From positions 121,879 to 185,878 of the forward strand of contig JAWCQE010000001.1 in NCBI GenBank assembly GCA_038869895.1: a stretch of 64,000 nt of DNA, in the 5' to 3' direction. Positions within the stretch are counted from its first letter, which is position 1. Every line of letters begins with the position of its first letter. Below, piece after piece: positions 12,969-40,020 of the stretch. This stretch comes from Candidatus Pacearchaeota archaeon. GTDB taxonomy: Archaea; Nanobdellota; Nanobdellia; Pacearchaeales; GW2011-AR1. The position numbers and the translations under genes were made by a program. The notes beneath the pieces are model-generated. The model was not told where the DNA came from and did not search any database. It saw only the letters and a program-made list of their open reading frames with translations.

Positions 12969-13155
12969 TATGAATATTAATAATAAAGAGATATTAGATT
13001 TTGTAAAAAGTAAAAAGATAGTTACAAGTTCAGAAGTTGCGAAAAAATTTAATATTTCATGGAATACTGCAGATAAATATCTTCTTGAACTCGCATTTAA
13101 TGATAAAATCGAAAGAATTAAAAAAGAAGGGGTGAATTTATGGATTTTAAAATAA
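12958..13155 (+). CDS. Small winged-helix DNA-binding protein (65 aa)
   Basis: ...ILDFVKSKKIVTSSEVAKKFNISWNTADKYLLELAFNDKIERIKKEGVNLWIL follows the HTH-plus-wing pattern of small archaeal wHTH regulators. The start is ambiguous (ATG at 12958 or 12970). Confidence 0.5.
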   Translation: MLNNMNINNKEILDFVKSKKIVTSSEVAKKFNISWNTADKYLLELAFNDKIERIKKEGVNLWILK

Positions 13156-13970
13156 AAAGTCAGATAAGTAAAAAATCAGCTTGCAAGAAAGGACAGGTGA
13201 CAATTTTTGTTATTATCTCTCTTCTTCTTGTTGTTGCAATAATCCTATTATTTATCCTTTACAAAAATCAGCAGATTCCTGGAGTAAGAGTCGAAAAAAC
13301 TTCTGGCGAGGAACTCGAGTCTTGTATTAAATCTTATCTTGAAGAAGCAGTCGATTTAATTTTTGAAAATTCTGGGTATATTGAACTGCCGGAATTAACT
13401 TATCAAATAAGAAATATTTATGGATATTACAAACAAGAAAATGAAAAGAAAATCCCTTATTTGTGTTATACTGCAATTAATTATGTAAGATGCATTCCGC
13501 AAGAGCCTTTTTTTGTAAACCATATAGAAGATGAAATAAAAAATTTCATAATTCCAAAAGTTGAGATATGTTTTGAGAATTTAAGGAATAGATTGCAAGA
13601 AAGAAATTATGAAACAATGTTTGGTATAACAAAAAATTTAGATGTTGAATTAAATGAAAGAGGAGTCCAAATTTATATTGAAAAAGAAATTTCGCAAACA
13701 AAAGCAGAGAAAGAAGAACGTTTTAGCGAATTTAAGTCTAATTATAAGACAAGATTGTATGATGTAGCAAAAATATCTGAAAAAATTATCACAGAGGAGG
13801 TTAAATTTTGCAATTCTGATTATGTTGAAGTGATGAGAAATAATAAATTAATTGAAATAACAAAATTTCAGACAGGAGATGATGTTAAAGTTTATTCTGT
13901 TAAGGATTTACCTTCAAAGAAAGAATTTAAATTTGCTGTAAGGAACTGTGTCCTTGCAACTCCATCTTAA
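13140..13970 (+). CDS. Prepilin-like protein, module A; paralog of 17934-18734
   Basis: The N-terminus ...SACKKGQVTIFVIISLLLVVAIILLFILY has a KG|Q context plus a hydrophobic helix. It appears to align end to end with the 17934 ORF, for example at ...PYLCYT..NY..C..Q and at the C-terminal F(K/N)FAVR. Confidence 0.55.
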   Translation: MDFKIKSQISKKSACKKGQVTIFVIISLLLVVAIILLFILYKNQQIPGVRVEKTSGEELESCIKSYLEEAVDLIFENSGYIELPELTYQIRNIYGYYKQENEKKIPYLCYTAINYVRCIPQEPFFVNHIEDEIKNFIIPKVEICFENLRNRLQERNYETMFGITKNLDVELNERGVQIYIEKEISQTKAEKEERFSEFKSNYKTRLYDVAKISEKIITEEVKFCNSDYVEVMRNNKLIEITKFQTGDDVKVYSVKDLPSKKEFKFAVRNCVLATPS

Positions 13971-13971
13971 A

Positions 13972-16900
13972 ATGAATAAAAAGTTTATCGCAGGAATTGA
14001 AATTTTTCTTGTCATAAGCATGGCTGTTTCATTTTCATGGATTCTAGGAAATATTTATGGGACTTCTCCAGATATAAAAAGTTTATTAGAATTTATAACA
14101 ATAATTCCAAGTGTTTCTGCCCAAACAACTACATCATGTTGTCTTAATTTGAAAAGCGGAGCCAGTTGTACTGACATTCCATCTGATTCATGTTCTGATA
14201 TTTGTGATGGAAATTGTGTTTCAGGGACAACATGTTCTCAACTAAGGGAATGCAATCTTGGATGTGGATTTAATTCTGATGAAGGAACATGCACTCCAAA
14301 TACTCCAAGGGTACTATGTGAAGGAGATGAGGGCTGTGAATTTCTTGATGACCCTTTTTGCAACAATCAAAAATGTGAAATTGGATGTTGTGTTCTTGGA
14401 TTGAGTGCGAATTTGGAGACGAGAACTGGATGTGAAATACAATCTTTAAGAAGAGGAGTATCATTTGAATTTGACAGTTCAATAAAAGATGGCGTTCAAT
14501 GTTTGAATAAGGGTAAAACAAGTGAGGGAGCTTGTGTTGTAAATTTTGGAGAAGAAAAAAATAACTGCATTTTTACAACACAAAGTGAGTGTGTCAACAA
14601 TATAAAAGGAGTTTTTTATGAAGGCTATCTTTGTTCTCATCCAGAACTTAAAACAATATGTGTGAAGCAGTCAAGAGTAAGTTGTTTTGACAATAGGGAT
14701 GAGGTATATTGGTATGATTCATGTGGGAATAGAGAAAATATTTATTCATCAAATAGGGCAAGTTCATGGAATAATGGATTCGTCTTATCGAAAGAGAAAT
14801 CATGCAATCCTAATTCTTCAAATGAAAATTCAGGAAGCTGTGGAAATTGTAATTATAATCTTGGAAGTATATGCGGAGAGTTTAGGCCTGGAGTTGATTC
14901 TGGAAATATGGAAGGTTATACTTGTAGAAATTTAAACTGCATTGATTCAAAAGGAAAACAAAGAACAAACGGAGAATCATGGTGTGTTTATGATGGAACT
15001 ATAGGCGGAGGAAGTATACTTGAAGGGAAGAGTGGGGGATTATTATCAAAAATAGCTGGAGGATTATTGGAGGGAGAGGTTGCATTATTAAGCACTGATT
15101 TAGTAGGGAGCAGACATTTTAGGCAGGTATGTGTTAATGGAAAAGTAGAGGTAGAACCATGCGCTGATTATAGGAAGGAGATATGTGTCCAGAATGATAA
15201 ATCCCTTGATAATGGAAGAAAGATTGATAATGCAATATGTAGGATGAATTTATGGGAACAATGTATTTCATACAATCAAGGAAATGAGGGATGTGGGCCA
15301 GGATGTTTAACCAAATGTGTGAAAAATCCAGATTGTAGGATTCATCCTGTTTTTGTTGACTCTCGTTTTAAATTTAATGCTTGTGTCCCAAAATATCCTC
15401 CTGGATTTGATTTAGGAAGTACAAGCGGAGTAGATAGTTTTGTAAGAAATTATGTATCAAGTTCTATTAGTGATTTGGATGGAGGTGGGGTTCTTTCAAA
15501 ATTATCAGGAAGTTTAAGTTCTGAGAATTCTGCAGGAAGCATTTGTTCTTTAGCATCGCAAAAATGCACTAGTATATGGACTAAGACATGCGGACTATCA
15601 GGAATTCATTGGGAATGCACGAAAAACTGCAAATGCCATACTGAATCTTTTACAATTCAGATGAATAATCTTTGTGTTTCTCTTGGAGATTGTGGAGTTT
15701 ATGCAAATTATGAAGGAAAGGTTACTCCTGGTGGAGCTTATGTAACAAAGAAAGGAGGACATGGAAGGACCCCTCTACAACCATTTATTTTGATTCCAGT
15801 TTATGCTGTTTTAGTTAAAATATTAAAACCAACTCCTCCAAGTGGTGGATTTTTTCGAGATGAGAAAGACATAGTGAATTTTCCAACTGAAATTATTGAT
15901 CCATTCTTAGGAGGGTATAATAGAATAGATGTAGGGAAACTGCCAAGTCAGTTGGATAATATGCTTGGAAGCCAGTTAGGAACAACTATCGGAGCAGGAG
16001 TTGCTGGAGGACTTGTAGGAGGGGTAGTTGCAGGACTAGGAGGAGTTACAGCTGCAGGTCTTGGAGTTATTGGGGCTGCTACACAAGGAATATTATGGGC
16101 ACCAATTATTTTTCCAACAGGGGGGGTGGGTATGTTACAAATACCAGTTACTTTTTATGCTCCCACTAACAATATCCTTTCAACTGTATTTCACGGACAT
16201 TATTTAGGTAAACCATTTTTCGGATTTGATCCTTTATCAATTGCAATTGGAATCGCAGTTGGAATCGCGATTACTTATCTTATTGGATGTGGAAAAGTTA
16301 AGACAGTTGATATCAAATTTCAGTGTTTACCTTGGCAAAGGCCAAAAGGCGGGACTGATTGTGAGAAATGTGATGATGACCCTTTGAAACCATGTTCAAG
16401 GTATAGGTGTGAATCTCTTGGAGCAAGATGCACTTTGATAAATGAAGGAAAAGGAGATGTATGCGTAAGTGTTTCTGGGGAAAGTTCTATACCAGTAATT
16501 AGTCCATGGGAAGAGATACTCAATACCTCTTTTTATAGGTATGAAGACATAAGTCCTAATGGATTTAAAATAAGAACAAAAGATGGACAGTGTATACAGG
16601 CATTTACTTATTTAGTTTTTGGAGTTGAAACAGATGTTTATTCGGAGTGTTTCTGGAGTTTAGAACCATTTGCATATGAAAATAAATCAGAGGCAAATTT
16701 ATTTTTAGAAGGAAATCTTTTAACTAAAAATCATACAATGCTAACTTTATTGCCAAGTGTTGAAAGTTTATTGGCTAATGAAATTAATAACCAAGAAGAA
16801 TTGGGACAGGCATTGGAAACAACAACAGAACAGGACATCAGCGCCAGGCAATACATATTAAATCGATTAGGAGATTTAAATATCTATGTAAAATGCGCAA

Positions 16901-17898
16901 ACCTTGATGGAAAAGCCAACGACCAGGATTATAAAATAAACTTCTGTGTGTCTCCTGGGCCAGATATACAAGAACCGGTAATAATTGCGTCTTCTCCTCC
17001 GCAGAACAACTTCACAAAATTTGATGCAACAGAACAAGAAGCTTTCTTTTTTATTTCAGAACCAGCTGAATGTAGATGGGATAGTACGAGGCAAGTTATA
17101 TCAAATGAATTAGAATCATATAATTCATTGAGAAATGAAATGGAATGTAGTGTTGATTTAGATGAAAGTACAATACTTGGATGGCCGTGCAATGCAACTC
17201 TTCCAATAACAGGCGAGGAAAATAGATTTTTTATTCAATGTCGAGACCAGCCGTGGCTTGGAAATAATAACTCAAGAAACATAGGAGACATTTTTGAATA
17301 TTCGTTAAAAAGAAGTAATTCTGAATTAAAAATAACTTCTATTAAACCTAATGAAAAAGTCTTTGCAGGAAGTGAACCTATTATGATTGAATTGGAAGTT
17401 GAGACATCAGGAGGAGTTGAAAATGGAAACGCTTTCTGCAAATATAGTTTTGACAATAATCAATTTGTAAATTTCAGAATTACAGGCGAGAAAGTTCATA
17501 GCCAAATTCTAAATCAGATGAGAAAAGGAGATTATAAAGTTTATATTCAGTGTAATGATTTTGCAGGAAATGTTGCAGAAGGCATTGGGGAGTTCTCATT
17601 AGAACTTGATACTAAAGCCCCTGTTATAACAAGAGTTTTTAGTAATGCTAACACTTTATTCATTACAACAGATGAAGAGGCAAAGTGTTTTTATAAGAAT
17701 GAATCTGATGTAGGATGTAATTTTCCGTTAAATAATGTTACTGAATTTAATATTACTGAATTTACAAAGAATGGAAATATTCACTCAACTCCTTTAATAA
17801 AAGGAAAGAGTTACTATATAAAATGCGAAGATATTTGGAGCAATAGAGCTGAGAGTTGTTCTATTGTTGTAAGGAGTTTTGAAAATTTTGCAAGTTAA
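13972..17898 (+). CDS. Giant Cys-rich envelope protein (fused form): signal peptide, Cys-rich ectodomain, Gly-rich TM region, Cys-knot-like segment and four beta-sandwich-like repeats
   Basis: The ORF-track frame is 13948-17898. I prefer the ATG at 13972, directly after the upstream stop, which gives MNKKFIAGIEIFLVISMAVSF. The predicted cleavage is VSA|QTTTSCC. Its halves are homologous to the 618-aa and 694-aa ORFs downstream. No family was recognised. Confidence 0.7.
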   Translation: MNKKFIAGIEIFLVISMAVSFSWILGNIYGTSPDIKSLLEFITIIPSVSAQTTTSCCLNLKSGASCTDIPSDSCSDICDGNCVSGTTCSQLRECNLGCGFNSDEGTCTPNTPRVLCEGDEGCEFLDDPFCNNQKCEIGCCVLGLSANLETRTGCEIQSLRRGVSFEFDSSIKDGVQCLNKGKTSEGACVVNFGEEKNNCIFTTQSECVNNIKGVFYEGYLCSHPELKTICVKQSRVSCFDNRDEVYWYDSCGNRENIYSSNRASSWNNGFVLSKEKSCNPNSSNENSGSCGNCNYNLGSICGEFRPGVDSGNMEGYTCRNLNCIDSKGKQRTNGESWCVYDGTIGGGSILEGKSGGLLSKIAGGLLEGEVALLSTDLVGSRHFRQVCVNGKVEVEPCADYRKEICVQNDKSLDNGRKIDNAICRMNLWEQCISYNQGNEGCGPGCLTKCVKNPDCRIHPVFVDSRFKFNACVPKYPPGFDLGSTSGVDSFVRNYVSSSISDLDGGGVLSKLSGSLSSENSAGSICSLASQKCTSIWTKTCGLSGIHWECTKNCKCHTESFTIQMNNLCVSLGDCGVYANYEGKVTPGGAYVTKKGGHGRTPLQPFILIPVYAVLVKILKPTPPSGGFFRDEKDIVNFPTEIIDPFLGGYNRIDVGKLPSQLDNMLGSQLGTTIGAGVAGGLVGGVVAGLGGVTAAGLGVIGAATQGILWAPIIFPTGGVGMLQIPVTFYAPTNNILSTVFHGHYLGKPFFGFDPLSIAIGIAVGIAITYLIGCGKVKTVDIKFQCLPWQRPKGGTDCEKCDDDPLKPCSRYRCESLGARCTLINEGKGDVCVSVSGESSIPVISPWEEILNTSFYRYEDISPNGFKIRTKDGQCIQAFTYLVFGVETDVYSECFWSLEPFAYENKSEANLFLEGNLLTKNHTMLTLLPSVESLLANEINNQEELGQALETTTEQDISARQYILNRLGDLNIYVKCANLDGKANDQDYKINFCVSPGPDIQEPVIIASSPPQNNFTKFDATEQEAFFFISEPAECRWDSTRQVISNELESYNSLRNEMECSVDLDESTILGWPCNATLPITGEENRFFIQCRDQPWLGNNNSRNIGDIFEYSLKRSNSELKITSIKPNEKVFAGSEPIMIELEVETSGGVENGNAFCKYSFDNNQFVNFRITGEKVHSQILNQMRKGDYKVYIQCNDFAGNVAEGIGEFSLELDTKAPVITRVFSNANTLFITTDEEAKCFYKNESDVGCNFPLNNVTEFNITEFTKNGNIHSTPLIKGKSYYIKCEDIWSNRAESCSIVVRSFENFAS

Positions 17899-17933
17899 AT
17901 TTATAAAGAAATTTGTTTTTAGAAGGTAATAGA

Positions 17934-18734
17934 ATGATTAAATCAAAAAACAAAAGAGGACAGACAACAATCTTTGTTATCTTAGCAGTAGTTATTGTTG
18001 CAGTCATAGTGATTTTTTTTGCAGTTACGGATATAGGGAGAGAAACTTTTGAAAAAATCTCTAATATTGTTGGCAGTGATGAGATTAATGTTAAAGAAGA
18101 ATTGAATAAATGTTTTATTGATAACAGCGAAATCAATAAAAAAATAAATCTAATTATGTCACAGGGAGGAAGTATTGAACCTTCTTTATTTTTTCTTCAT
18201 AATGGAACGAAATTAAGTTATTTATGTTATACTAATGAATTTTATAAGACATGTGTAAATCAGCAGCCTTTAATATTACAACATACAAAGAATGAGATAA
18301 ATAGGGCAATTCTTCCAGAAATAGATAAATGTATTTCTTCATTAAAAGCCAATTTTGAAAAAAGAGGATATCAAATAAGAGGACAGAATTTCGAGAGTTC
18401 AATAGATATAATTCACAACAACATAATTATTAAAATAAATTTCCCTCTAACTATCAAAAAGGGGGATTTAACACAGACATTTGAAAATTTTGAAATAAAA
18501 AAACATAGCCAGTATTATCAATTATTAAGTGTTGCAACATCAATTGTAAATTTTGAATCCCAATATGGCGATAGTGATCCAGTTTTATATATGTCTCTTT
18601 ATCCGAATACAAGAGTTGAAAAATTAAAACAAGGAGATGGGACAACAATTTATAAGATTAGTGATAGGGAAACAATGGAAACTTTTAACTTTGCTGTAAG
18701 AAGTTTGGCTTTGCCTATAGGATATGGATTATAA
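17934..18734 (+). CDS. Prepilin-like protein, module B; paralog of 13140-13970
   Basis: The N-terminus is MIKSKNKRGQTTIFVILAVVIVAVIVIFFAV, with an RG|Q context. The ATG at 17934 is preceded by GAAGGT. The ORF-track start at 17913 is a TTG. Confidence 0.55.
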   Translation: MIKSKNKRGQTTIFVILAVVIVAVIVIFFAVTDIGRETFEKISNIVGSDEINVKEELNKCFIDNSEINKKINLIMSQGGSIEPSLFFLHNGTKLSYLCYTNEFYKTCVNQQPLILQHTKNEINRAILPEIDKCISSLKANFEKRGYQIRGQNFESSIDIIHNNIIIKINFPLTIKKGDLTQTFENFEIKKHSQYYQLLSVATSIVNFESQYGDSDPVLYMSLYPNTRVEKLKQGDGTTIYKISDRETMETFNFAVRSLALPIGYGL

Positions 18735-18750: not shown

Positions 18751-20607
18751 ATGGTGATTGAAAAAAAAGAAGAAAAATTGAAGAGAAAATTTACAAGTAA
18801 TTACTTTTTAGGTTTTAGTCTGTTTATTTTTTTTATTTTATTTTTTTCATCTTATGTCACGGCGCAGACAACGACAGTATGCTGTGAAAAAACTTTAAAT
18901 GGAGCTTACTGCCAGAATTCCATTCAAAGCCAGTGTGATTCAAGATTTTTAAGTTCACAAACAAGCTGTGATGCGACTTCTTTCTGTCAATTAGGAGTTT
19001 GTTATGATAGTGATGATGGATTATGTATGAATAATGTTCCTCAAAGGGCATGTGAAGAAGCAAACGGATTGTGGACAAGTGATGCAAATCCTCCCCAATG
19101 CAATTTAGGATGTTGTATTCTTGGGCAGCAGGCTTCTTTTACAACTCTTCAAAGATGTAAGAAATTATCTGGAACTTACGGACTTCAAGTGGATTTCAGA
19201 ACAGACATCAAAGACGAAGTTTCTTGTATTGCAGTTGCAAATGCACAAGACATTGGAGCTTGTGTTTTTGAGTCAGAATTTACAAGAACCTGTAAATTTG
19301 TTACAAGAGCTGAATGTGGCACTTCAATGAACTCAACAAATTCAGGAGTAGTTCCTAATACGCAATTTTTCAAGGATTTTTTATGTACTTCAGAACAGCT
19401 TAATACAAACTGCCAGAGAACCTCAAAAACTTCTTGTTTTGAAGGAGAGGATGAAGTTTATTTTATTGATAGCTGTGGGAATAAGGCTAATATTTATGAT
19501 GCTTCAAGAATAAATGATAAAAATTATTGGGAAAAAAGAGTTCCTAAAAGTCAGAGCTGCACTGCCTCTAGGAATTCTAGAAGTTGTGGAAACTGCGATT
19601 ATCTTGAAGGAAGTATTTGTTCTAAAGCTAAAGATTCTGGTGTTAAGCCAGCTTATGGCGAATTTATCTGTAGGGATATAAATTGTTATAGTACTTCAAA
19701 TGGAAAAAATTACAAAAATGGGGAGTCATGGTGTTTTTACGACAATAATAATAAAGGGGATGATAGGGTTGGAAGTAGACATTTTAGGCATATTTGTTTT
19801 ATGGGAGAGGAAATTGTAGAACCATGCGCTGATTATAGGCAAGAAACATGCATTGAAGATTCGATAAATGTTGAGGGCGGTGGAACTTTTCTACAAGCAG
19901 GATGTGTTGTGAATAGGTGGCATGATTGTTTGTTGCAGAAAAGAATTGAAGATTGCCAAAATACTGATTTAAGAGATTGTAAATGGATTCCGGTTTCTGA
20001 AGAACCTGAAGAGATAGCAAAAGGGATAATTGATGCATCTTTAAATAAAATTACAAATGGATTTTCTGGATTATTAATGAATGTTATTGAAAAAGATGAA
20101 AGAGATAAAGGGGCTTGTGTTCCAGATATTGCTCCAGGACTTGAATTTTGGGGGGAGTCGGCGGCATCTCAGTGTGACTTAGTAAGTTCAAGTTGTGTTA
20201 TAACTTATGAAAAGACGTTAATTGGAGGAAAAAAGTGTGTTAAGAATTGCTTTTGTGATATAAAAGAAAACCCACAAACAGCAATTCAGGCATTGAATAT
20301 ATGTTCCTCTATAGGAGACTGCGGACCAGGAGCAAATTATATAGGAAAATTTGTTAATAATGGTTATGAACTAAGAATAGATGACAAAAAAATAGGTCCT
20401 GAACTTAATTTAGGAATTTTTACTGCTTCTCCTGTTCAAAGTGGAAGTCCTGCAAATCCCTCTACAAATCCCTCTTTTGAACAAAGAAGAGAATTTTCAA
20501 CAGCAACACAACAGACATTTCAAACTCAAACCTCAACTGCAACTTCAACAACAGGAAATATTATCAAAGATATAATAACTGAAACATATAAACAACTTGG
20601 AAAATAA
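18751..20607 (+). CDS. Cys-rich secreted protein, homolog of the N-terminal half of the 13972-17898 protein
   Basis: The signal peptide ends ...YVTA|QTTTVCC. It shares the motifs GCCILG, CGNCDY, NGESWCFYD and VGSRHFRHICFMGEEIVEPCADYRQETC. It has a T/Q/S-rich low-complexity C-terminus. Confidence 0.7.
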   Translation: MVIEKKEEKLKRKFTSNYFLGFSLFIFFILFFSSYVTAQTTTVCCEKTLNGAYCQNSIQSQCDSRFLSSQTSCDATSFCQLGVCYDSDDGLCMNNVPQRACEEANGLWTSDANPPQCNLGCCILGQQASFTTLQRCKKLSGTYGLQVDFRTDIKDEVSCIAVANAQDIGACVFESEFTRTCKFVTRAECGTSMNSTNSGVVPNTQFFKDFLCTSEQLNTNCQRTSKTSCFEGEDEVYFIDSCGNKANIYDASRINDKNYWEKRVPKSQSCTASRNSRSCGNCDYLEGSICSKAKDSGVKPAYGEFICRDINCYSTSNGKNYKNGESWCFYDNNNKGDDRVGSRHFRHICFMGEEIVEPCADYRQETCIEDSINVEGGGTFLQAGCVVNRWHDCLLQKRIEDCQNTDLRDCKWIPVSEEPEEIAKGIIDASLNKITNGFSGLLMNVIEKDERDKGACVPDIAPGLEFWGESAASQCDLVSSSCVITYEKTLIGGKKCVKNCFCDIKENPQTAIQALNICSSIGDCGPGANYIGKFVNNGYELRIDDKKIGPELNLGIFTASPVQSGSPANPSTNPSFEQRREFSTATQQTFQTQTSTATSTTGNIIKDIITETYKQLGK

Positions 20608-22692
20608 ATGGAGAATAAAAAGTTAAGAAGAATGAAAAAAAAGGGAATAAAAAAAAGTGAAGGATTATTTTTAATAGCGAATATTCTTTTAGGGATTTTT
20701 GCCTTTGCGTTTATTATGAACGTTGAAGTTGTTAGAGGGCAGGCGGACGGAGTAGGTTCTAATGGAGATGAGGAGGGGAAAGTTGAGGACCAGAATGGGA
20801 TTGGCAATAAGGGGGGGAAAACAGGGGAAGAAAAAGGATCTAAAAAATTTAAAATAGGTAATTTCACAAAATCAGCAAGTTATATAACAGGAGGACTTGC
20901 GTTAGGACAAATTATAAAAGAACTTGCTGGTGATGAACCATGGGGGGATGCATTAGGGAATGCGTTGGGAGTTGCTGGAGGAGTTTCAGGTTTTTCTAGT
21001 TTATTTCCTGAAAAAACCTTTTTAGGAGGTAATGCTCATTTATTAGGGGTAGGGGCAGGAATACTAACTTTTATTTTAACATACAAGAAAATTGAATATG
21101 AAACTGTTTTTTTTACATGTCAACCATGGGAAGCTCCTATTGGAGGGAATGACTGTGAGAAATGTAATGATGGAGTCCATCCATGTTCTGAATATAGGTG
21201 CAAGAGTTTAGGACAGGCTTGTGATTTAGTTAATAAAGGAACTGAAAAGGAACTCTGCGTCTGGACAAATCCAAGAGATGTAAATAGTCCTTCAATAAGG
21301 CCACTTGAAAGCGCTTTAAGTCCAGGATATAGATATGTTCCTTTAGGGGCAAGGCCTCCTAATTGGGGAACTCAAATAAAACCTTTGGGAGACGATTGTA
21401 TTCCTCCATTTACTCCAATACAATTTGGAATACAAACAGACAAACCTTCTCAATGTAAGATTGACTTTTTAATTCTTGGAGGAGCGGGAGATGTTGATGT
21501 AAAACCAAAAGGATACGATGATATGAAATTCTTTTTTGGCATGAGTAATTTATATGATTATAATCATATTCAATCTTTGAGCTTGCCAAGTCCTAATACT
21601 ATAAATAAAGTTGATGAATTAAGGCAGAATGAAACAGGAGGTTTAGAAATACAAAATGATGGCATATATAACTTATATGTGCGATGTAGAAGTGCGAATG
21701 GATTTTATAATGCAGACCCTTATAAAATAAATTTCTGTGTTCAGAAAGGGCCAGACTTAACTCCTCCAGAAATTGTTGAAACAAGCATAAGAAACGGACA
21801 GCCTATAAACTTTGAAGCGGATAATGTAACTTTAAGTGTATTTACAAACGAACCTGTAAATTGCAAATGGTCAAGAGATAATGATTTAAGTTTTGAGAGT
21901 ATGAATAATGAAATGATATGCGCTAATAACCTTCAGGATATAAGAAATAATATGCTTTATGAGTGTAGAACTAGATTGACTGGAATAAAAGATAGGCAGG
22001 ATAATTTATTTTATTTCAGATGTGAAGACCAGCCTTGGGAATCTCCAAGCAATAGAAATAAAATGTCTAGAGGATATCAATTTGTCTTAAAAGGAACACA
22101 GCCTTTGAATATTAAACAAGATTCAATAAAGCCAATATCAGGGAGCATTTTAACAGGAGCGACTTCAACAATTCCTATAACTCTGGAAGTTGAAACTCAA
22201 AATGGATTTAATGAGGGAGAATCTGTTTGTCTTTATAGTTTGAATAATGAAACTTTCATAAGATTTTTTGAAACAAATTCATTTAAGCACAAGCAGACTC
22301 AAGATTTAACTCAGGGAGAATATACTTATTATATAAGATGTGTGGATTTAGGAGGAAATCAAGATTATGGTATTACAACTTTCAGTGTTTTTGTTGACAC
22401 TCAAGCACCATTAATTACAAGAGTCCTAAATGATAATAATAAACTTAAGATAATTACAGATGAGGAAGCAGTATGTAGATATACAAATGATATAAATACA
22501 AGATGCAATTTTGACATTAACGAGGGAGAGGGAAATCCAATGCAATATCCTTCTCAAAATCAGAGAAAAGAACATCTTGCAATGTGGAATACAAAAGAGA
22601 CTTATTATATCAAATGTATGGATATTAACAATAGACAACCGAATCCGACAGAATGTTCAATAATTGTTCGTCCTGTTGAGTTAAGAGAATAA
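20608..22692 (+). CDS. Membrane-anchored Cys-rich protein, homolog of the C-terminal half of the 13972-17898 protein
   Basis: The ATG directly abuts the upstream TAA (20605-20607). It has an N-terminal anchor LFLIANILLGIFAFAFIM, a Gly-rich region, then FTCQPWEAPIGGNDCEKCNDGVHPCSEYRCKSLGQAC. These are followed by four repeats matching those of the fused protein. Confidence 0.7.
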   Translation: MENKKLRRMKKKGIKKSEGLFLIANILLGIFAFAFIMNVEVVRGQADGVGSNGDEEGKVEDQNGIGNKGGKTGEEKGSKKFKIGNFTKSASYITGGLALGQIIKELAGDEPWGDALGNALGVAGGVSGFSSLFPEKTFLGGNAHLLGVGAGILTFILTYKKIEYETVFFTCQPWEAPIGGNDCEKCNDGVHPCSEYRCKSLGQACDLVNKGTEKELCVWTNPRDVNSPSIRPLESALSPGYRYVPLGARPPNWGTQIKPLGDDCIPPFTPIQFGIQTDKPSQCKIDFLILGGAGDVDVKPKGYDDMKFFFGMSNLYDYNHIQSLSLPSPNTINKVDELRQNETGGLEIQNDGIYNLYVRCRSANGFYNADPYKINFCVQKGPDLTPPEIVETSIRNGQPINFEADNVTLSVFTNEPVNCKWSRDNDLSFESMNNEMICANNLQDIRNNMLYECRTRLTGIKDRQDNLFYFRCEDQPWESPSNRNKMSRGYQFVLKGTQPLNIKQDSIKPISGSILTGATSTIPITLEVETQNGFNEGESVCLYSLNNETFIRFFETNSFKHKQTQDLTQGEYTYYIRCVDLGGNQDYGITTFSVFVDTQAPLITRVLNDNNKLKIITDEEAVCRYTNDINTRCNFDINEGEGNPMQYPSQNQRKEHLAMWNTKETYYIKCMDINNRQPNPTECSIIVRPVELRE

Positions 22693-22848: not shown

Positions 22849-23541
22849 TCAAGCAAGATAATCTATAGTTAGTTTTGGTGCTATATCTAGTAAGCCAGTT
22901 CTTTGGGCAAGTTCCCTAGAAATAAATCCCACTCCGTGGTCATCGCCGCCATACCCATCATCAATGTCTCTCCCTTTAATAGTGAATCCGTAATTTGGTT
23001 CTCCAGCAACCCAACCTCGGACAGCTTGTTTAACATCCCAGTTATGGACTCTTCCATCTAAAATAATTCTTGAAGAAGAAATAAATTCCATATGATTAAA
23101 AGAAGAATTATGAGTTAAACCTCCTTCTTGCCAAGGATTTAAGGTAAGTTTATCAATATCTACTGTAGCTATTGGTTGTATACGGGACGCTGTTATTACA
23201 GAACTCATGGAAAAAATTGCACTATCAATCCTTGCATTTCTTGGGATACTTGAAACGTCAAATTTTACATACCCTCTAAAACTTGCACTACGTTGTGGAG
23301 TGTGGATTTCACCAGTTTGTATAATATCTTCTCTTCCGTAATTTGTTGCAGGATTTTCAGAACTTGTATAAGTATCTCCAATGGCATATAAAACAATGGA
23401 ATGGAACTCTCCGTTTCCACCTCCTCCTCCGCCTCCGTCTCCCCCTCCAGGGTTGCTAGAAGGACAACCTGCTATTATCCAGTAGCCTGCTAATCCTAAA
23501 GTTTTTAAAATTTCCCTTCTTGTAATTATATCCCCCTTCAT
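22849..23541 (-). CDS. Tat-signal lipoprotein with DNRLRE/CBM96-like beta-sandwich domain
   Basis: The N-terminus TRREILKTLGLAGYWIIAGC has a twin-Arg motif plus a lipobox-like Cys, followed by a poly-Gly linker. The domain reads ...GDTYTSSENPATNYG...GYVKFDVSSIP.NARIDSAIFSM...WQEGGLTHN...WDVKQAVRGWVAGEPNYGF, which fits my recollection of the DNRLRE domain. Confidence 0.55.
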   Translation of the reverse strand: MKGDIITRREILKTLGLAGYWIIAGCPSSNPGGGDGGGGGGGNGEFHSIVLYAIGDTYTSSENPATNYGREDIIQTGEIHTPQRSASFRGYVKFDVSSIPRNARIDSAIFSMSSVITASRIQPIATVDIDKLTLNPWQEGGLTHNSSFNHMEFISSSRIILDGRVHNWDVKQAVRGWVAGEPNYGFTIKGRDIDDGYGGDDHGVGFISRELAQRTGLLDIAPKLTIDYLA

Positions 23542-23838
23542 TTTTTTATTTAAAATTAAGAGTTTAAATATTTTTCCTTTTGATGTGGTTTGTAAAGTAA
23601 ATCCTTAAATCAAGTTACTTTTTTTACAAAGGGTAATTATTTTACGAAACTTATTCAGATGAATTGTAAATGAATCTTCAAATTTGATTTTATTTATAGG
23701 GCAATATCGATATCTTACAAATAGCAAGATTAGATAAGGTATTTTTATCAATATTAAATTTATTTATATATTATAGAAATTACAAATTTTACTATTTATT
23801 TTATACTTTTAAGTATAATTAATTATTATAAATAGAAT

Positions 23839-24969
23839 CTATTCTGTTCTAAAATGATGTTCTATATATTCAACCATCTCGCGAGCTGAAAGTTTAACAC
23901 TTGCTGGCCCATTTCTTATGTAAAATTCCTCTTCATTTTGAAATTTTACAAAAACAGGCTTTTTTGATTTTTGACATTCAATCTTTAGAACATGTTTATC
24001 ATCTACTGGAAAGAGTTCAAATTCAATAAAATGGAGATATTCATTTCCTATGTATTTTTTAAGAAGATTTGTGAAATGAAGATTTAGCGAATCATTATCT
24101 TTGAAATTATCCTTTTCCAATCCACATATTTTTCCATTGTCATTTACTCCTATTAATAATGTTCCTCCTTCTGTATTGAGAAAAGCAGAAATAGTTTTTA
24201 TTGTAGAATATTCGATTTTGCTATCAATCTCATTTGTATGAAGATTTGTCCTTAATGTTGATTTAAATTCGAGATTTTTTGATTCTCCAACACTTATTAT
24301 TTTTTTTATTTCATCAGAAGATTCTTCCAAAGTATTTCTAATTCTAAAAAATCGCTTATATCTCTCAATTTGTTTTGAAACAAACTTAGAGATTATTTTT
24401 ATTTCTCCATTTTGTATATATGAATATCCGATTAGTGATATTATAAACGCCCCGAATGTGTTTGTTATAATGTCTTTCATTGTGTCAATATTGGACTTTT
24501 GCATTTTGAATCCAAAGAGATTGTCAATTGAAAATTCAATTATTTCCCATAATACCCCTACAGCAATTGTAAAACAGAAAGTCAGGAATGAAATAATCAA
24601 TGGATTTGCTTTTATTTTCCTATCCCTATACAGAGCATATAATATAATAAGTCCGACAATTCCAAGAACGCTTGCTGCAATAAGATTAAGGGCAATATCC
24701 CACCACCAAAACTCAGCAAAAAATCCTCTCACTTCACTTAGAAAAAGGATTCCATAAATTGATAGTATGATTATTATTTCATAAATCGCAGGAAAATTAA
24801 CTCCAAGCGTTTTCAATACTTTTGGAACAAATGTTGCAACAAATCCTATTAACGAAAAGACCATTACAAGATTTCTTCCATAATAAATTGAACTTATGAA
24901 GGCTAAAGCAAGGAGCCCTCTTATTAAATTAATCACCAAAAATTTAACTTTCTCTCTTTCCTCTCCCAT
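23839..24969 (-). CDS. Membrane protein (about 5-6 TM) fused to a C-terminal AlbA_2/Schlafen-like putative DNA-binding domain
   Basis: The N-terminal ~200 aa are polytopic. The C-terminal part reads GESKNLEFKSTLR.N........KIEYSTIKTISAFLNTEGGTLLIGVNDNGKICGLE, the hallmark of the AlbA_2 (divergent AAA/Schlafen-type) domain. Confidence 0.6.
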   Translation of the reverse strand: MGEEREKVKFLVINLIRGLLALAFISSIYYGRNLVMVFSLIGFVATFVPKVLKTLGVNFPAIYEIIIILSIYGILFLSEVRGFFAEFWWWDIALNLIAASVLGIVGLIILYALYRDRKIKANPLIISFLTFCFTIAVGVLWEIIEFSIDNLFGFKMQKSNIDTMKDIITNTFGAFIISLIGYSYIQNGEIKIISKFVSKQIERYKRFFRIRNTLEESSDEIKKIISVGESKNLEFKSTLRTNLHTNEIDSKIEYSTIKTISAFLNTEGGTLLIGVNDNGKICGLEKDNFKDNDSLNLHFTNLLKKYIGNEYLHFIEFELFPVDDKHVLKIECQKSKKPVFVKFQNEEEFYIRNGPASVKLSAREMVEYIEHHFRTE

Positions 24970-25159: not shown

Positions 25160-25648
25160 ATGAAAAGAGGACAATTTCAACTTGGATTTGGAATGATTTT
25201 CTCTATTATATTGATAATTGCATTTATAATTGTTGCATTTATTGCTTTCAAAGCTTTTTTTGGAGTGAGGTGTTCTACTGAACAAGGAAGATTTATTTAT
25301 GAACTTCAGAATGAAATTGACAGGATATGGAAAGGCTCGGGCGAGGATAGGATTAAGGAATTTAAAATTTTAGGATGTGATTTTGATTATGTTTGTTTTT
25401 GGGATCCAAATGTTCCTTCAAGAGGAAATTTCAGAACTTTTGAAGACGATTTCAGTATTTTTACAGGAGATGAAGGAAACCATAATTTATATTTTTATCC
25501 AAGAAAAAAAGTAGAAATTTCTTCAACCTTGATAAAGCATATTAATATGGATTTTAGAGAGAATCCTGTATGTTTTAGAAACGAGGAGAATTCTGTTAAA
25601 ATAAGACTCAGCAAAAACATTGACGAAGATTTAGTAAGAGTCTCATAA
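25160..25648 (+). CDS. Prepilin-like protein (class III signal peptide)
   Basis: The N-terminus MKRGQFQLGFGMIFSIILIIAFIIVAFIAF has an RG|Q context. It is the first gene of a tightly packed four-gene run. Confidence 0.6.
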   Translation: MKRGQFQLGFGMIFSIILIIAFIIVAFIAFKAFFGVRCSTEQGRFIYELQNEIDRIWKGSGEDRIKEFKILGCDFDYVCFWDPNVPSRGNFRTFEDDFSIFTGDEGNHNLYFYPRKKVEISSTLIKHINMDFRENPVCFRNEENSVKIRLSKNIDEDLVRVS

Positions 25649-25649
25649 A

Positions 25650-26600
25650 ATGAATAAAAATGGTTTTGAGTTCAGCTTTGCATGGCTGTTTGCGATAATT
25701 GCTGGTGCAGCTGTGCTTTTTCTTGCAATTTTTTTTGCAACAAAATATGTTTCAACAAGCGAATTTGAAATTAATACAAAAATTGCAGCCGAATTTGTAA
25801 ATGTTCTTAATCCTTTGCAAACAAGTGTTTATGATTCATCTGCAATAAATGTATTTCTCCCATCTGAAGCGAGAATTTTTACTTCATGCGATAGTGGAGG
25901 AAATTTTGGAAGAAGTATTGTAACTTTTTCCGAAAAAATAGGTTTTGGTGAAAAATTTTCAAGGGCAGGCAATCCAATCTCAACTGAAAATTCATATTTA
26001 TTTGCTGAAAATATTATTGAAGGAAAAAAGATTAATTTTCTTGTTTTCTCTTTAAAAATGCCTTACAAAATTGGGGATATTCTTATAGCTTATTCTGATT
26101 CTTACTGCTTTGTAAATGCCCCAAGAAATATTGAGAGAGAACTTGGAGATTTAACAGAAGGAAATAGTTTTGATGTCATATTCACTTCAAATAAAAATGC
26201 CTGTCCTGAAAGTAAGCCTGTGTGTTTTGGAGGTTTTGAATGTGATATAAATGTAAGATGCAACGACAATGAATGTTTAAGTGGATTTGTAAGAAAGGAT
26301 GGAATGGATAATTATTTTACTGGAAAACTTTTATACGGAGCGATATTTTCGTCAAGGGAAAATTATGAGTGTAATGTTAAGAGATTAATGAAGAGGCTTG
26401 AATCAGTTAGCACTATTTATTCTAAAAAATCCCAGTTTATAGCTTCAAGAGGATGCACTAATACAAATTTGCTTCCATTAATTGAATCTCTTAGAGAATC
26501 TTCTGGAGAATTTGAAAGGCTTGAAAACCTCCCACAAATTTCCTCTATTGCAGACGAAGTAAATGAAAAAAATAAATATCTTGAATGCCAGTTATTTTAA
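25650..26600 (+). CDS. Prepilin-like protein
   Basis: The N-terminus MNKNGFEFSFAWLFAIIAGAAVLFLAIFFA has an NG|F context. It starts 1 nt after the upstream stop. Confidence 0.55.
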   Translation: MNKNGFEFSFAWLFAIIAGAAVLFLAIFFATKYVSTSEFEINTKIAAEFVNVLNPLQTSVYDSSAINVFLPSEARIFTSCDSGGNFGRSIVTFSEKIGFGEKFSRAGNPISTENSYLFAENIIEGKKINFLVFSLKMPYKIGDILIAYSDSYCFVNAPRNIERELGDLTEGNSFDVIFTSNKNACPESKPVCFGGFECDINVRCNDNECLSGFVRKDGMDNYFTGKLLYGAIFSSRENYECNVKRLMKRLESVSTIYSKKSQFIASRGCTNTNLLPLIESLRESSGEFERLENLPQISSIADEVNEKNKYLECQLF

Positions 26601-27125
26601 ATGAAAGATAAAAAAGCCCAATTAAAGATAAAGCAGATGATTTTTATGCTTCTAGCTCTAACTATTTTTTTTGTTCTTGTTGCTTTGTTTTTTATCTCAA
26701 TAAAATCAATTAACCTTGAGAAAGAGGTTGTTGAATTAAAAAGAGATAGAGCTTCTAACTTAGTTGAAAAACTTTCTTCAACTCCGGAATTTATATTTGA
26801 AAACAAACCAAATTCAATTGATGCAGATAAACTTATTATCCTTCAAAGTGAAAGTATATATAGAACGAGAACGGATTCGACTTTTTGGGGAGTTGAGGGG
26901 ATAATAGTAAGAAGAATTTATCCGAAAGAAAGAGAGATTGAATGCACTAAATTTAACTATCCTGAATGTAATATTATCAAACTTTTTACAGAAAAAAATA
27001 CAAGTCCAACTTCAAGTTTCGTTTCATGGTGTAGAAAACAAAGTCTTGAAGGAAGGACGTATGATAAATGCGAACTTGCAGAACTTATGATAATTGAGGA
27101 AAAAATAAATGAAGCTCAAGACTAA
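26601..27125 (+). CDS. Prepilin-like protein
   Basis: The N-terminus is MKDKKAQLKIKQMIFMLLALTIFFVLVALFFI. It abuts the upstream stop. Confidence 0.5.
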   Translation: MKDKKAQLKIKQMIFMLLALTIFFVLVALFFISIKSINLEKEVVELKRDRASNLVEKLSSTPEFIFENKPNSIDADKLIILQSESIYRTRTDSTFWGVEGIIVRRIYPKEREIECTKFNYPECNIIKLFTEKNTSPTSSFVSWCRKQSLEGRTYDKCELAELMIIEEKINEAQD

Positions 27126-27609
27126 AAAATCGCAGGAAGAAATAGTCGGGTTTGTTTTAATAGTTGTCCTTATTGCTATTATCGGAGTTATATTTTTAGG
27201 GATATCCTTAAGAAAGGATTCAGGTAAGGTTAATGAAAGCCAAAAAATTGCAAGCCTTATAACTTCAATATCTCATTTGACAACTCAGTGTCAGATAAAT
27301 TCAAATTTCCAAGATGTAAGTGATTTAATAAATGGGTGTGCTAATAGAAGAATTTGCGATGATTCAAAGCCTACTTGTGAAGTCTTAAAAACCACTCTTG
27401 ATGAGGTTATGAAAGCAAGTTATGTTGTAACTGATAAAAGCTTTACAACACATTATAATTTAACAATAAATAATAAATTTGATAATACTATTTTAATAGA
27501 GCCGGTAATTTCAGGAAAAGTTGAAAGATGTCTTGGAAGAAAACTCGTAAATGAAAAAAATTTTGGCAGAGATTTATCAATGAGGATTGAAGTCTGTTTT
27601 AATGAATAA
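27109..27609 (+). CDS. Prepilin-like protein
   Basis: The N-terminus is MKLKTKKSQEEIVGFVLIVVLIAIIGVIFLGI. It overlaps the upstream gene by 17 nt. Confidence 0.5.
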   Translation: MKLKTKKSQEEIVGFVLIVVLIAIIGVIFLGISLRKDSGKVNESQKIASLITSISHLTTQCQINSNFQDVSDLINGCANRRICDDSKPTCEVLKTTLDEVMKASYVVTDKSFTTHYNLTINNKFDNTILIEPVISGKVERCLGRKLVNEKNFGRDLSMRIEVCFNE

Positions 27610-28460: not shown

Positions 28461-31115
28461 ATGAAAATTAATTTTAGAAAAGTCGGTTCAGTTATTGCGA
28501 GTGCAGCTATGCTTGGAAGCACAATGGGAATTGCTGTTGCAGCCTCTTATCCTGGTGCGTTTACTGCAGGAGGGGCTGGAGGAGTAGCAATAGTTACAGG
28601 AAGTATTGCAGCTTCAAGTGATTTTGTTGCAGCAACAGAGATAGGTTCAAATTTAAACAGTGCGATTGCTGCAGGTATAATTACTACTGGTGGAAGTGTT
28701 ACAACTAGTGGAGAAACAAAAGCACTTTTTACAGGTTCCTCAAAAATATATATGAATGATAGTATAAGCATAAATAAAGCTACTTTAACGAAAACTGATT
28801 TGCCAACTATTCTTGCAGATGGTGAATTTAATGGAAATGTTGATTCTGAATATACACAAAGAATTATTCTTGGTTCTTATCCAAGAGTTATTTTTGGAAA
28901 AATGCCAACAACTGAGAATGATCCTTTAACAGGAATCAACCTTGGCACAACAGTTACAACACAATATTTATATAATATGACAGTTACATTTGACGAAGCA
29001 GTTAACTTTACCCACTCTGATTCAAAAACAAAAGGGACTGAAATTACTTTATTTGGACAGAAATTTACAGTGGCTGGAGCTACAGATTCTAGTAAATTGG
29101 TATTATTGAAGTCAGCTCAAAAAATTACTTTGGGTCTTGGAGGAAACAATCCTAATCCAGTTCAATCTGTAACAGTTAATGATAGGACGTATACAGTAGA
29201 ACTTACAAATGTTCAAGATGATGAGGCCATAATTAAAGTAACTGATAGTAATGGACAAAGTTCAACAGCAAGAATTAGTGAAGGGGCTTCAAGAAAAGTT
29301 CAAGGATTAGAAGTTGCAGTTAACATAGCTACAGAATCAACTGCATTGAGTAGTGCATGGGCAGATATTATTGTTGGAACCTCAAAAGTTACTCTTCAAG
29401 ATGGAGAGCCTGTGAAAGTAGGTTCTGAGGATAAGATAATTGATGGTACTCAAGTTGATTTTGTTGATACCACATATACTGGGAATATAACTAGACTTGT
29501 TGTCCAAGTTGCAGCACCTGAAAGTGATAAAGATGCGATAACTCCTGCAATGTCATTTGTTGACCCTGTTTTTGGAGGTTTCAAAGTTGATTTTCCTGGA
29601 TTAAATATTGCAAATGAAGATGAAACTGCCAGAGAAATGATTGAAGTCAAGAATTCAGGAAGTGACAAAATGACTGTAAAATTTACAGACTATAATAAAG
29701 GTGAGATAACCTTTAATTGGGTCTATAACAGATCTAATTCACAGGGAGGAATTATGAGATTAGCAGATTCAAACAACAGAAGGATAATTGTTGCTGAAAT
29801 GTCTCCTATAAATAAATCAGAATATGTTATGGTTGGAAATGAAGATGAAGGAGGATTGTACCAAGTTGTAACAATCACAAATTCTTCGGGATTTTCAGAT
29901 GATTCAGTTGAATTAAGAGATGTTATTACAGGAAAAACTGAAAAAGCTTCTATTACTGCTGAAGGTTCTGGAACTATTGTCCTTAATGGAAAGACATATG
30001 AGGTAAGTTATTTTGCACCAAACACTTTAACTGACACAGCAAGAACCATAAGATTAAATTATCCTGACAGTTCAGGCAATAGTGTAATCTTATATCCTAC
30101 AATTGAAACGTCAAAAGGAGCAAAAATTGCTTTCTATGAACCATTAACTATAGATCTGATGACTCAACATGCTGGAGGCAATTTATCTGGACATAATATA
30201 AAATTTCCAGATGGAGATGGTTATACTGACGCCGCAGTTGTTATTGTAAATACAACTACTGGAATGGTGACTATAGATGGGAACAATCTTAATACAGGTG
30301 CTTCAGATGGAGCAAGTTCTACAACTAAAACTGTCGGAAGATTAACTTACAATTTCACAAGTACAGGTGTTGGTAACAATACGAAGGTCTATCTTCAAGC
30401 AATTCCAGGAGTAAATATTGTAAGGCCTGCAATAATCCTTTTTGAAGAAAAAGATGACCAAAATAATTACGAGGCTGTAGTTATTACATTAGATTCAGGT
30501 TATGACGGAGATAGTGCAGGAATCGGAGTCCAAAATGTTATAAGAACATGGGGGCTTGATGGTTCTAATGGAGATTCAGATGCATGGAATGATGTAAGAC
30601 TTGAAAGCAATGATGACTTGTATCAAGACATGGATAGATGGGGAACAATAATCACTGCTGATAAATCTGATAGTGATCAAACAAGGGCTGTAATAAGCTA
30701 CCCAGATGAACAAGTATATGCACAAGTCTATGTATCTTCATCAAATGCAGTCGTGTCTTCAGGAAATGGAGGAGCAGGAACCGTAATGGTTGTGAGAGAT
30801 AATGAAGTTGACAACATTGCAAACAAGAATCTGATTGTTGTTGGGGGTAGCTGTGTAAATACATTAGCTGCTGAATTGCTTGGAAGTTCAAATCCTTTAT
30901 GTGGAAGGGATTTCACTGCAAGAACAAATGTCGGTGTTGGAGAATACCTAATTGAAACTTTCTCACGAACTGACGGAAAAATTGCTACCTTAGTCGCAGG
31001 ATATGAAGCTGATGATACAAGGGCTGCAGCAAGGTCTTTGGTAACAAATAATCCAGAGATTGCTTCTGGTGTCAAGTATAAAGGTTCGACTTCAGGCTCA
31101 TTCACAAGAGCGTAA
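28461..31115 (+). CDS. Candidate S-layer / major surface glycoprotein (884 aa)
   Basis: A strong SD (GGAGGT, 5 nt before the ATG) precedes a signal peptide ending ...MGIAVAAS. The protein is Thr/Ser/Asn/Gly-rich with many N-x-S/T sequons. Its only two Cys sit in the C-terminal NLIVVGGSCVNTLAAELLG...LCG segment. I recall that motif type from archaeal S-layer proteins. A long T-rich tract follows the stop. Confidence 0.6.
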   Translation: MKINFRKVGSVIASAAMLGSTMGIAVAASYPGAFTAGGAGGVAIVTGSIAASSDFVAATEIGSNLNSAIAAGIITTGGSVTTSGETKALFTGSSKIYMNDSISINKATLTKTDLPTILADGEFNGNVDSEYTQRIILGSYPRVIFGKMPTTENDPLTGINLGTTVTTQYLYNMTVTFDEAVNFTHSDSKTKGTEITLFGQKFTVAGATDSSKLVLLKSAQKITLGLGGNNPNPVQSVTVNDRTYTVELTNVQDDEAIIKVTDSNGQSSTARISEGASRKVQGLEVAVNIATESTALSSAWADIIVGTSKVTLQDGEPVKVGSEDKIIDGTQVDFVDTTYTGNITRLVVQVAAPESDKDAITPAMSFVDPVFGGFKVDFPGLNIANEDETAREMIEVKNSGSDKMTVKFTDYNKGEITFNWVYNRSNSQGGIMRLADSNNRRIIVAEMSPINKSEYVMVGNEDEGGLYQVVTITNSSGFSDDSVELRDVITGKTEKASITAEGSGTIVLNGKTYEVSYFAPNTLTDTARTIRLNYPDSSGNSVILYPTIETSKGAKIAFYEPLTIDLMTQHAGGNLSGHNIKFPDGDGYTDAAVVIVNTTTGMVTIDGNNLNTGASDGASSTTKTVGRLTYNFTSTGVGNNTKVYLQAIPGVNIVRPAIILFEEKDDQNNYEAVVITLDSGYDGDSAGIGVQNVIRTWGLDGSNGDSDAWNDVRLESNDDLYQDMDRWGTIITADKSDSDQTRAVISYPDEQVYAQVYVSSSNAVVSSGNGGAGTVMVVRDNEVDNIANKNLIVVGGSCVNTLAAELLGSSNPLCGRDFTARTNVGVGEYLIETFSRTDGKIATLVAGYEADDTRAAARSLVTNNPEIASGVKYKGSTSGSFTRA

Positions 31116-31291
31116 AAACAATTTATTTTTACTTTTTCTTTTATTTTTTATTTATAAAATAATTATATATTAATTAAATTATAAAAAGTCAATAAACTAA
31201 TGTATCGTTCATTTAAAAAATAAAACTTGTTAAGAGATTATTGAATAATTTTATTAATAAACTTTTTAAACAAGATTTGATATTTTATAAA

Positions 31292-37197: not shown

Positions 37198-40020
<2,823 letters not shown>

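Follow-up and report, generated by a model that had tools for sequence, protein, structure and literature searches.

A probably genuine and old two-gene version of a DPANN cell-surface protein beside its single-gene paralog in a Pacearchaeota genome

The stretch of DNA analysed here (the window) comprises 64,000 nucleotides (nt) of a Candidatus Pacearchaeota archaeon (contig JAWCQE010000001.1 of the assembly GCA_038869895.1, positions 121,879 to 185,878 of the forward strand). It is archaeal, with a guanine plus cytosine content of about 29%, and carries on the + strand two tandem paralogous modules. In module A a large protein is encoded by one fused gene, and module B contains the two-gene version. 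We consider it probable that the split pair of module B is genuine, of old standing and widespread, and that it represents a cell-surface protein of the DPANN archaea (Pacearchaeota/Woesearchaeota) encoded by two genes, standing beside a single-gene paralog, with the chain broken in the linker and the leader duplicated. Five observations carry this reading: the homology of the halves, the conservation of the split, the position of the break, the identity of the leader, and the repeated changes between the fused and split states on phylogenetic trees.

Homology of the fused and split proteins and position of the break

The fused gene of module A displays the following features (aa, amino acids; ORF, open reading frame; HMM, hidden Markov model):
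13948..17898 (+): ORF of the fused protein, 1316 aa from GTG
13972..14052 (+): leader of the canonical family type, MNKKFIAGIEIFLVISMAVSFSWILGN, 33.3 bits against the HMM of split C-half leaders
14113..15735 (+): Cys-rich N-half ectodomain, fused residues 56-596, aligned to residues 36-538 of the 618-aa protein
15736..15975 (+): variable linker, fused residues 597-676, from hydropathy, with a hydrophobic stretch at 608-628; the module B gene boundary maps here
15976..16302 (+): Gly/Ala-rich hydrophobic membrane segment, fused residues 677-785, with Kyte-Doolittle hydrophobic segments at 677-723 and 756-785
16324..17895 (+): C-half ectodomain, with the motif CxPWxxPxGGxDCxxC followed by Ig/FN3-like domains, aligned to residues 146-691 of the 694-aa protein

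The gene call of the database (P0001, 100% identical over 1308 aa) begins at ATG 13972, directly after the upstream stop, and a start at GTG 13948 would overlap the end of the upstream gene (13140-13970). ATG 13972 is likely the true start, giving 1308 aa. As read from its sequence, the architecture of the fused protein is leader / N-half / linker / membrane helices / C-half. Many Cys residues are invariant across the family, and the homologs of 1100-1400 aa number hundreds in Pacearchaeota and Nanoarchaeota.

The features of the split pair of module B are the following:
18751..20607 (+): N-half gene, 618 aa, with signal peptide, Cys-rich ectodomain, Q/T/S-rich tail and C-terminal amphipathic helix
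20605..20610 (+): gene boundary, TAA followed at once by ATG, in frame, from the sequence
20608..22692 (+): C-half gene, 694 aa, with orthologs of 45-67% identity in the loci L002, L004, L007, L008 and L011
20608..20739 (+): canonical family leader of the C-half gene, 44 residues, MENKKLRRMKKKGIKKSEGLFLIANILLGIFAFAFIMNVEVVRG/Q, 21.5 bits against the HMM of fused leaders
20878..21087 (+): Gly-rich/transmembrane (TM) segment of the C-half protein, residues 91-160, counterpart of the fused membrane segment

The relation between the fused and split forms is real and far above chance. Residues 56-596 of the fused protein match residues 36-538 of the 618-aa protein with 33% identity (BLASTP, E 5e-68), and residues 767-1312 match residues 146-691 of the 694-aa protein with 35% identity (E 6e-80). 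The parts of the fused protein are therefore homologous to two different short proteins in collinear order, as between a composite gene and its components. An earlier note, made from the letters of the window, had proposed that one genome carries both states of the same two-part protein, and the two matches bear this out. The Gly-rich and hydrophobic peptides that it quoted are present at fused residues 677-722 and 763-782 (nt 15976-16302), and we recovered in the sequence the TAA at 20605-20607 directly followed by the ATG at 20608-20610, the Q/T/S-rich tail of the upstream gene, and the basic N-terminus of the downstream gene followed by its anchor LFLIANILLGIFAFAFIM.

The position of the break was another matter. 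The note had placed the junction at 15960-16300, exactly at the Gly-rich TM region, and had described it as embedded in the membrane. A multi-alignment of 69 sequences of the family puts the boundary between fused residues 646 and 647, and aligns residues 91-157 of the 694-aa protein with fused residues 677-779. The equivalent of the boundary in the fused gene is around nt 15750-15890, outside the proposed interval, and the break is 30-70 residues upstream of the Gly-rich/TM segment; the alignment is soft in the linker, and under any mapping the whole Gly-rich/TM segment is encoded within the downstream gene. Across the family, the last N-half motif (GDCG) and the first C-half motif (CxPWxxPxGG) are separated by a variable stretch of 170-480 residues, and the Gly/Ala-rich hydrophobic helices are always localized at its C-terminal end. 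The break sits in this variable linker, which is probably extracellular.

The 618-aa protein begins with a signal peptide of generic type (residues 1-39, FLGFSLFIFFILFFSSYVTA/Q, ending with VTA/Q) and runs on 97 residues beyond GDCG, with a disordered Q/T/S-rich tail (551-602) and a short amphipathic helix (603-616). In a model obtained with AlphaFold2 (AF2), the predicted local distance difference test (pLDDT) score is 78.7 overall and below 50 for residues 551-609, and the helix 603-616 is present. A motif of the N-half tail, GN[IV][IV].., is conserved in 8 loci. The 694-aa protein is composed of the 44-residue leader (MENKKLRRMKKKGIKKSEG-LFLIANILLGIFAFAFIM-NVEVVRG/Q), a charged Gly-rich linker of about 45 residues, and then hydrophobic helices at 91-160. 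The split architecture, as predicted in the same manner, is generic signal peptide / N-half / tail for the first gene and leader / linker / membrane helices / C-half for the second. The abutting TAA and ATG suggest translational coupling of the two genes.

Conservation of the two-gene state

The ORFs 18751-20607 and 20608-22692 share one frame. The survey of orthologs proposed by the earlier note found the two-gene state in dozens of related genomes with differing intergenic structures. Representative loci are:
GCA_016186425.1: split, 755 + 902 aa, 116-nt spacer
JAGVWP010000003: split, 721 + 796 aa, one small ORF between the halves
CAZQGH010000005: split, 540 + 785 aa, 1-nt spacer, different frame
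CAYHYE010000001: split, 553 + 825 aa, two small ORFs between, 67% identity to the window
JBAZNV010000002: both modules fused

Metagenomes were scanned with a profile of the split C-halves, which gave 80 further loci. These, the previously collected loci and the window were classed by their ORFs, and the distinct loci comprise 36 split, 15 fused, 15 with the C-half only and 28 cut by a contig end. Among the split loci, the gap between the half-genes varies from -17 to 3127 nt, and an in-frame abutment like that of the window is also found in L054 and L069. A HMMER search with the 694-aa protein recovered 2292 cluster representatives (50% identity). The nearest 150 of them comprise 97 stand-alone C-halves beginning with Met and leader, 46 C-halves with an unclear N-terminus, and seven fused proteins. 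The view that the fused form is the norm and the split form is rare was dropped as a ranking artefact, since long proteins score higher, and the census with the C-half alone reversed the picture for the B-type lineage (see below).

The codon TAA terminates 43 of the 54 long ORFs in the window, so the TAA at 20605-20607 is an ordinary stop, and a reassignment or readthrough of TAA was rejected on this usage. From these sequence comparisons, we conclude that the stop is genuine and that the split is maintained.

Several peculiarities of the related loci were recorded on the way. About ten of them contain, between the N-half and the C-half, one or two small genes that resemble lipoprotein genes and are absent from the window (L004, 5997-6458; L008, 5081-5707 and 5731-6378; L039, 4997-5368; also L019, L023, L059, L064, L067 and L080). 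Their signal peptides end with a lipobox-like (A/G)GC and they show weak mutual similarity. In L023 (4708-5124) and on the minus strand of L070 (255 and 252 aa), short ORFs encode nothing but the canonical leader, linker and first Gly-rich helices and lack the ectodomain of the C-half; these ORFs are either pseudogenes left by truncation or the membrane part in the form of a mini-protein. The N-half ORFs at L001 (7484-9898), L002 (8481-10748) and L004 (3786-5951) extend 110-150 residues before the signal peptide with an Asn/Lys-rich sequence, which is probably an over-extension of the ORF and not real protein.

Phylogenetic analysis

The tree of the C-half was obtained by neighbour-joining with simple distances from 471 columns of 218 sequences, and an independent tree of the N-half, also by a simple distance method, from 430 columns of 72 sequences. 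In the C-half tree, all A-type proteins and the early-branching (stem) B-type proteins are fused, and split and fused proteins interleave in the crown of the B-type. Fitch parsimony gives a fused root for both trees, with 9 changes for the C-half (8-13 over 60 bootstraps) and 10 changes for the N-half (9-12), so that either tree needs no fewer than 8-9 switches between the two states. The window belongs to the largest split block, which contains 21 sequences in the N-half tree. The two trees agree, the same split lineages standing beside the same fused relatives, and this congruence indicates that the halves co-evolve as partners. The earlier note had argued from the fused form, as with a Rosetta stone, that the halves work together. 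The usual adjacency of the half-genes and the congruent trees speak for this view, and the lone C-half genes described below weaken it.

Leader peptides

The start is alike in the 51 distinct C-halves, split or stand-alone: in every one, a basic segment (mean net charge +3.4) is followed by a hydrophobic segment (mean Kyte-Doolittle value 2.52) and by an end of the V-S-[AG]/Q type. The leader of the 694-aa protein has the features of a Sec-type signal peptide, namely a positive n-region, a hydrophobic h-region some 15-20 residues long and small residues at -3 and -1. The equivalent internal region of the fused proteins is less hydrophobic (1.1-1.4) and has a net negative charge upstream. With blastp-short, the best match of 50 of the 51 split leaders is to residues 1-55 of fused proteins (E down to 3e-9); for the leader of the 694-aa protein, it is the N-terminus of the fused protein P0152 (E 6e-6).

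The same correspondence is found with profiles in both directions. An HMM was built from the leaders of the 51 split C-halves, and 284 N-termini with a hydrophobic stretch from the same loci were used as decoys. The N-termini of the fused family score a median of 26.9 bits against 0.0 for the decoys (Mann-Whitney p 8e-55), the medians by group being 27.9 bits for the A-type, 29.7 for the stem B-type and 40.5 for the crown B-type. The 95th percentile of the decoys is 6.7 bits, and the four decoys with high scores proved to be fragments of the family. With the reciprocal HMM, built from the N-termini of 152 fused proteins, the medians are 25.3 bits for the C-half leaders, 6.0 for the N-half leaders and 2.0 for the decoys, and 50 of the 51 C-half leaders reach at least 15 bits. 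The two consensus sequences of the leaders nearly superpose (...ALFQIFNLVLAIFAFSFLIGLESEVVSAQ versus ...AYFQILLLIISSFAFSYLIYES....EVSAQ).

The N-half leaders of the split loci are short generic signal peptides, and that of the window scores 3.4 bits against the leader HMM. The C-half of the split form has therefore an extra copy of the leader and the N-half a different signal peptide, which is not what a composite cut at a single point would give; judged from these sequences, the split is not a simple cut of one chain. With a leader copy on one half and a generic peptide on the other, the gain or loss of a stop alone cannot interconvert the two states, and a duplication of the leader is required. 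In locus L039 both halves start with the canonical leader, that of the N-half scoring 33.1 bits, and the locus looks like the expected intermediate of a duplication route. The fused proteins of the crown bear the canonical N-terminal leader, so any re-fusion predated the decay of the N-half leader.

The sequence of the leader is conserved only when it is joined to the membrane part and is relaxed on the free N-half, which suggests a function linked with the membrane helices. The other helices might depend on it for their insertion or, since the conservation of the h-region is unusual, it might be kept as a first membrane helix.

Alternative explanations

The simplest account of the split would be a plain fission, where the linker of the fused gene acquired a stop and a start codon and the downstream half took as its signal peptide an internal hydrophobic helix already present, H1, whose end reads G-V-V-S-G in B-type relatives. 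The fused B-type relatives do contain an amphipathic helix and a hydrophobic stretch ending with GVVSG, 25-60 residues past the last N-half motif, at the position where the split genes break. A few close pairs are alike (P0124 and L057, with a Smith-Waterman score of 52; P0123 and L008), and the crown B-type gives a marginal signal against locally shuffled junctions (Smith-Waterman, Fisher p 0.044). However, the junctions of the stem B-type and of the A-type are no better than the shuffled controls (p 0.47 and 0.56), and the HMM of the split leaders has no significant internal hit in the 152 fused proteins. The split leaders match the N-terminal leader of the fused proteins far better, and a plain fission leaves the loss of the canonical leader from the N-half unexplained. 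H1 was downgraded as the origin of the leader on the profile and shuffle tests and on this match to the fused N-terminus, and we regard a plain fission as unlikely. The inverse direction, from an ancestral split state to single-gene forms by the joining of two neighbours, is less probable again. Split forms abound, gene fusion is more frequent than fission in prokaryotes, and the TAA-ATG of the window, with its abutment shared by two other loci, is one point mutation from a fused (or re-fused) ORF; yet the fused proteins bear the canonical leader at the N-terminus and have no significant internal match to it, all the A-type and early-branching B-type proteins are fused, and both half-trees root in the fused state by parsimony. 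Least credible is the view that the TAA at 20605-20607 was introduced by faulty sequencing or assembly, is a recent nonsense mutation that inactivated the gene, or is read through to yield a fused protein. These possibilities would fit two ORFs in one frame with a single TAA between them. But both genes bear derived features of a long separation, namely a conserved tail and C-terminal helix at the end of the first and a Met, basic residues and a complete leader at the start of the second, and orthologs share these termini with the varied gaps given above and in other frames; the usual stop of the window's ORFs, TAA, points the same way.

The reading that we prefer, an old two-gene version with a duplicated leader, has to accommodate several points that weigh against it. 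A second assembly of the boundary was found neither by exact protein look-up nor by a scan of metagenome contigs with a degenerate 43-mer, L010 being a second assembly of the fused gene that stops short of the boundary, and the case for a genuine stop is a comparative one. In the window's own C-half, the membrane segment has helices of only moderate hydrophobicity. The monophyly of the first five split sequences has a bootstrap value of just 29/100, and the number of events is uncertain because the trees were obtained by neighbour-joining with simple distances; several fissions are not told apart from one fission followed by several re-fusions. Finally, five loci have a lone C-half gene, the N-half being absent from the roughly 5.5 kb upstream and 6 kb downstream of it, and the partnership is therefore not obligatory everywhere.

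Concerning these lone C-half loci (L047/L061, L052, L070, L074 and L088), their genes carry the canonical leader, and around all of them except L052 the pilin-like and S-layer genes are missing. These loci probably represent extra copies that have dispersed.

Proposed explanation and significance

Under the preferred reading, ectodomain 1 of the split form would be secreted as a protein of its own, unanchored and with an ordinary signal peptide, and the second gene would supply the canonical leader, the linker, the membrane helices and ectodomain 2. The leader may have been duplicated either with the whole gene, followed by complementary losses, or by itself. Both ectodomains would lie outside the cell, the Gly/Ala-rich helices crossing the membrane an even number of times between them. 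The free N-half would stay attached non-covalently, and its C-terminal amphipathic helix, conserved in 8 loci, is a candidate docking element. The leader would remain with the membrane part on account of a joint function.

A further-reaching idea, which we hold to be doubtful, is that the leader is a retained first membrane helix in the Gly-rich core of a DPANN surface complex, where ectodomain 1 is detachable and has been repeatedly switched between covalent and non-covalent attachment. If so, the switching might tune shedding, exchange or host contact, and the family would hold a naturally matched set of tethered and untethered forms of a single envelope or attachment machine.

Genes are well known to split and to fuse, and the bare occurrence of such events is ordinary; what is new here is a variant of the familiar event in a large family of DPANN surface proteins. 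This family, with its 2292 clusters at 50% identity, is restricted to DPANN archaea and uncharacterised, and it is a candidate envelope or host-contact component because it sits in a locus with S-layer and pilin-like genes. The comparison of the fused and split forms gives a map of domains and topology, the leader that travels with the membrane part hints that it is functional, and the repeated switching provides natural experiments on the need for a covalent link between the ectodomains. For annotation, the 618/694 boundary should not be "repaired".

Fold and comparison with known systems

Every named homolog comes from metagenome-assembled genomes of Pacearchaeota, Woesearchaeota or Nanoarchaeota. 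The large proteins have no relative in Pfam, NCBIfam or the sequences of the PDB; at E <= 1, Pfam gives nothing for the 1316-aa and 618-aa proteins and only the sub-threshold Big_13 and Y_Y_Y for the 694-aa protein. The fused homolog P0127 (1167 aa) was modelled with AF2 from an alignment of 57 sequences, and the model has a pLDDT of 81 with both ectodomains confident. Its junction (548-646) is below 50, the junction region holding four helices. The C-half of the model is all-beta, with a pLDDT above 85 over residues 660-1167, and a Foldseek comparison of it with the PDB gave 413 hits at E <= 0.001, headed by Ig/FN3 arrays (best E 4e-13). Tandem Ig/FN3 adhesion molecules such as PTP-delta, NCAM, cadherins and GhpA are recovered with E values of 4e-13 to 1e-9 and a probability of 1.0. 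However, the identities of 8-10% and the TM-scores of 0.1-0.3 correspond to a generic array of beta-sandwiches. The modelled fold of the C-half would be that of a surface or adhesion-like protein, nothing more specific.

No fold similarity of the ectodomains to Fusexin or class II fusogens (Fsx1, HAP2) was found, nor any profile match to the membrane-associated S-layer-like Ig proteins of pfam07760 and COG4743. Like the present family, the latter are membrane proteins of archaea that have Ig-like domains outside the cell and S-layer and pilin-like genes as neighbours, but they have no counterpart of the Cys-rich N-half. DPANN-specific secreted proteins adjoining S-layer-like genes have been described by Makarova, Wolf and Koonin, and membrane-associated Ig-like families linked to the S-layer by Makarova, Galperin and Koonin (PMC6393860, PMC5898192). 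These families can be taken as loose analogies, not as matches, and in the literature we found no description of the present family.

Composite and component (Rosetta-stone) gene pairs, as well as fission by duplication with complementary degeneration, are known phenomena. The present case shares with them one long protein equivalent to two shorter, adjacent and co-evolving products, the occurrence of both states in one lineage (here in one genome), and a locus, L039, that looks like the duplication intermediate with its leader on both halves. It differs in that the distal piece has a copy of the N-terminal leader and the proximal piece has swapped its own for a generic one, and in the number of changes of state, at least 8-9, in one subfamily. 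The two-protein S-layers of archaea (SlaA/SlaB of Sulfolobales), as well as surface glycoproteins with a membrane subunit, consist of an unanchored outer subunit and a membrane-anchored partner. The predicted fate of the 618-aa protein (unanchored) and of the 694-aa protein (anchored) would be analogous, and an S-layer gene is present in the locus. No similarity of sequence or fold to these systems was found.

Genomic context

The other features of the envelope locus are the following:
13140..13970 (+): small pilin-like protein of module A, 276 aa, N-terminus KKGQ followed by a hydrophobic stretch, class III signal-like
17913..18734 (+): small pilin-like protein of module B, 273 aa from TTG, KRGQ followed by a hydrophobic stretch
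25160..27609 (+): four small pilin-like genes of 162, 316, 174 and 166 aa, conserved context downstream of the module
28461..31115 (+): S-layer-like protein, 884 aa, Pfam PF05124 S_layer_C with E 5.5e-8, above the curated cutoff

The small proteins of the two modules are paralogs (26% identity, E 6e-21). ATG 17934 is the likelier start of that of module B, giving 266 aa as in the gene call of L010. That of module A has no significant match in Pfam or NCBIfam. The motifs KKGQ-VTIFVII, KRGQ-TTIFVIL, KRGQ-FQLGFGMIF and KNG-FEFSFAWLF were read from the sequence among the neighbouring small genes. The lone hint in Pfam for the small pilin-like genes is Tad (E 0.059, under the cutoff), and NCBIfam gives nothing. 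Homologs of the four downstream genes are found downstream of the module in 37-50 of 90 loci, and the S-layer-like gene is present in 28 of them. From the sequences of these loci, the order of the envelope genes appears conserved: pilin-like genes, the two large-protein modules, four pilin-like genes and the S-layer gene.

Between module B and the pilin-like cluster, two genes are localized on the minus strand (22849-23541 and 23839-24969). One of this pair (22849-24969) encodes a CBM96-like secreted protein (E 2e-14) and the other a protein with a Schlafen/AlbA_2 domain (E 1e-23); the Schlafen gene holds the same position in seven related loci, for instance L008 and L011. The S-layer gene is followed by two small genes (31241-32562, +) for proteins of 214 and 225 aa whose N-termini contain a hydrophobic stretch. 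A homolog of them is found in one of 90 related loci, most of which end before that position. Elsewhere in the window, no 16S or 5S ribosomal RNA (rRNA) gene was detected, so that the rRNA genes appear unlinked, and a complete archaeal 23S (large subunit, LSU) rRNA is encoded at 37181-40015 on the minus strand.

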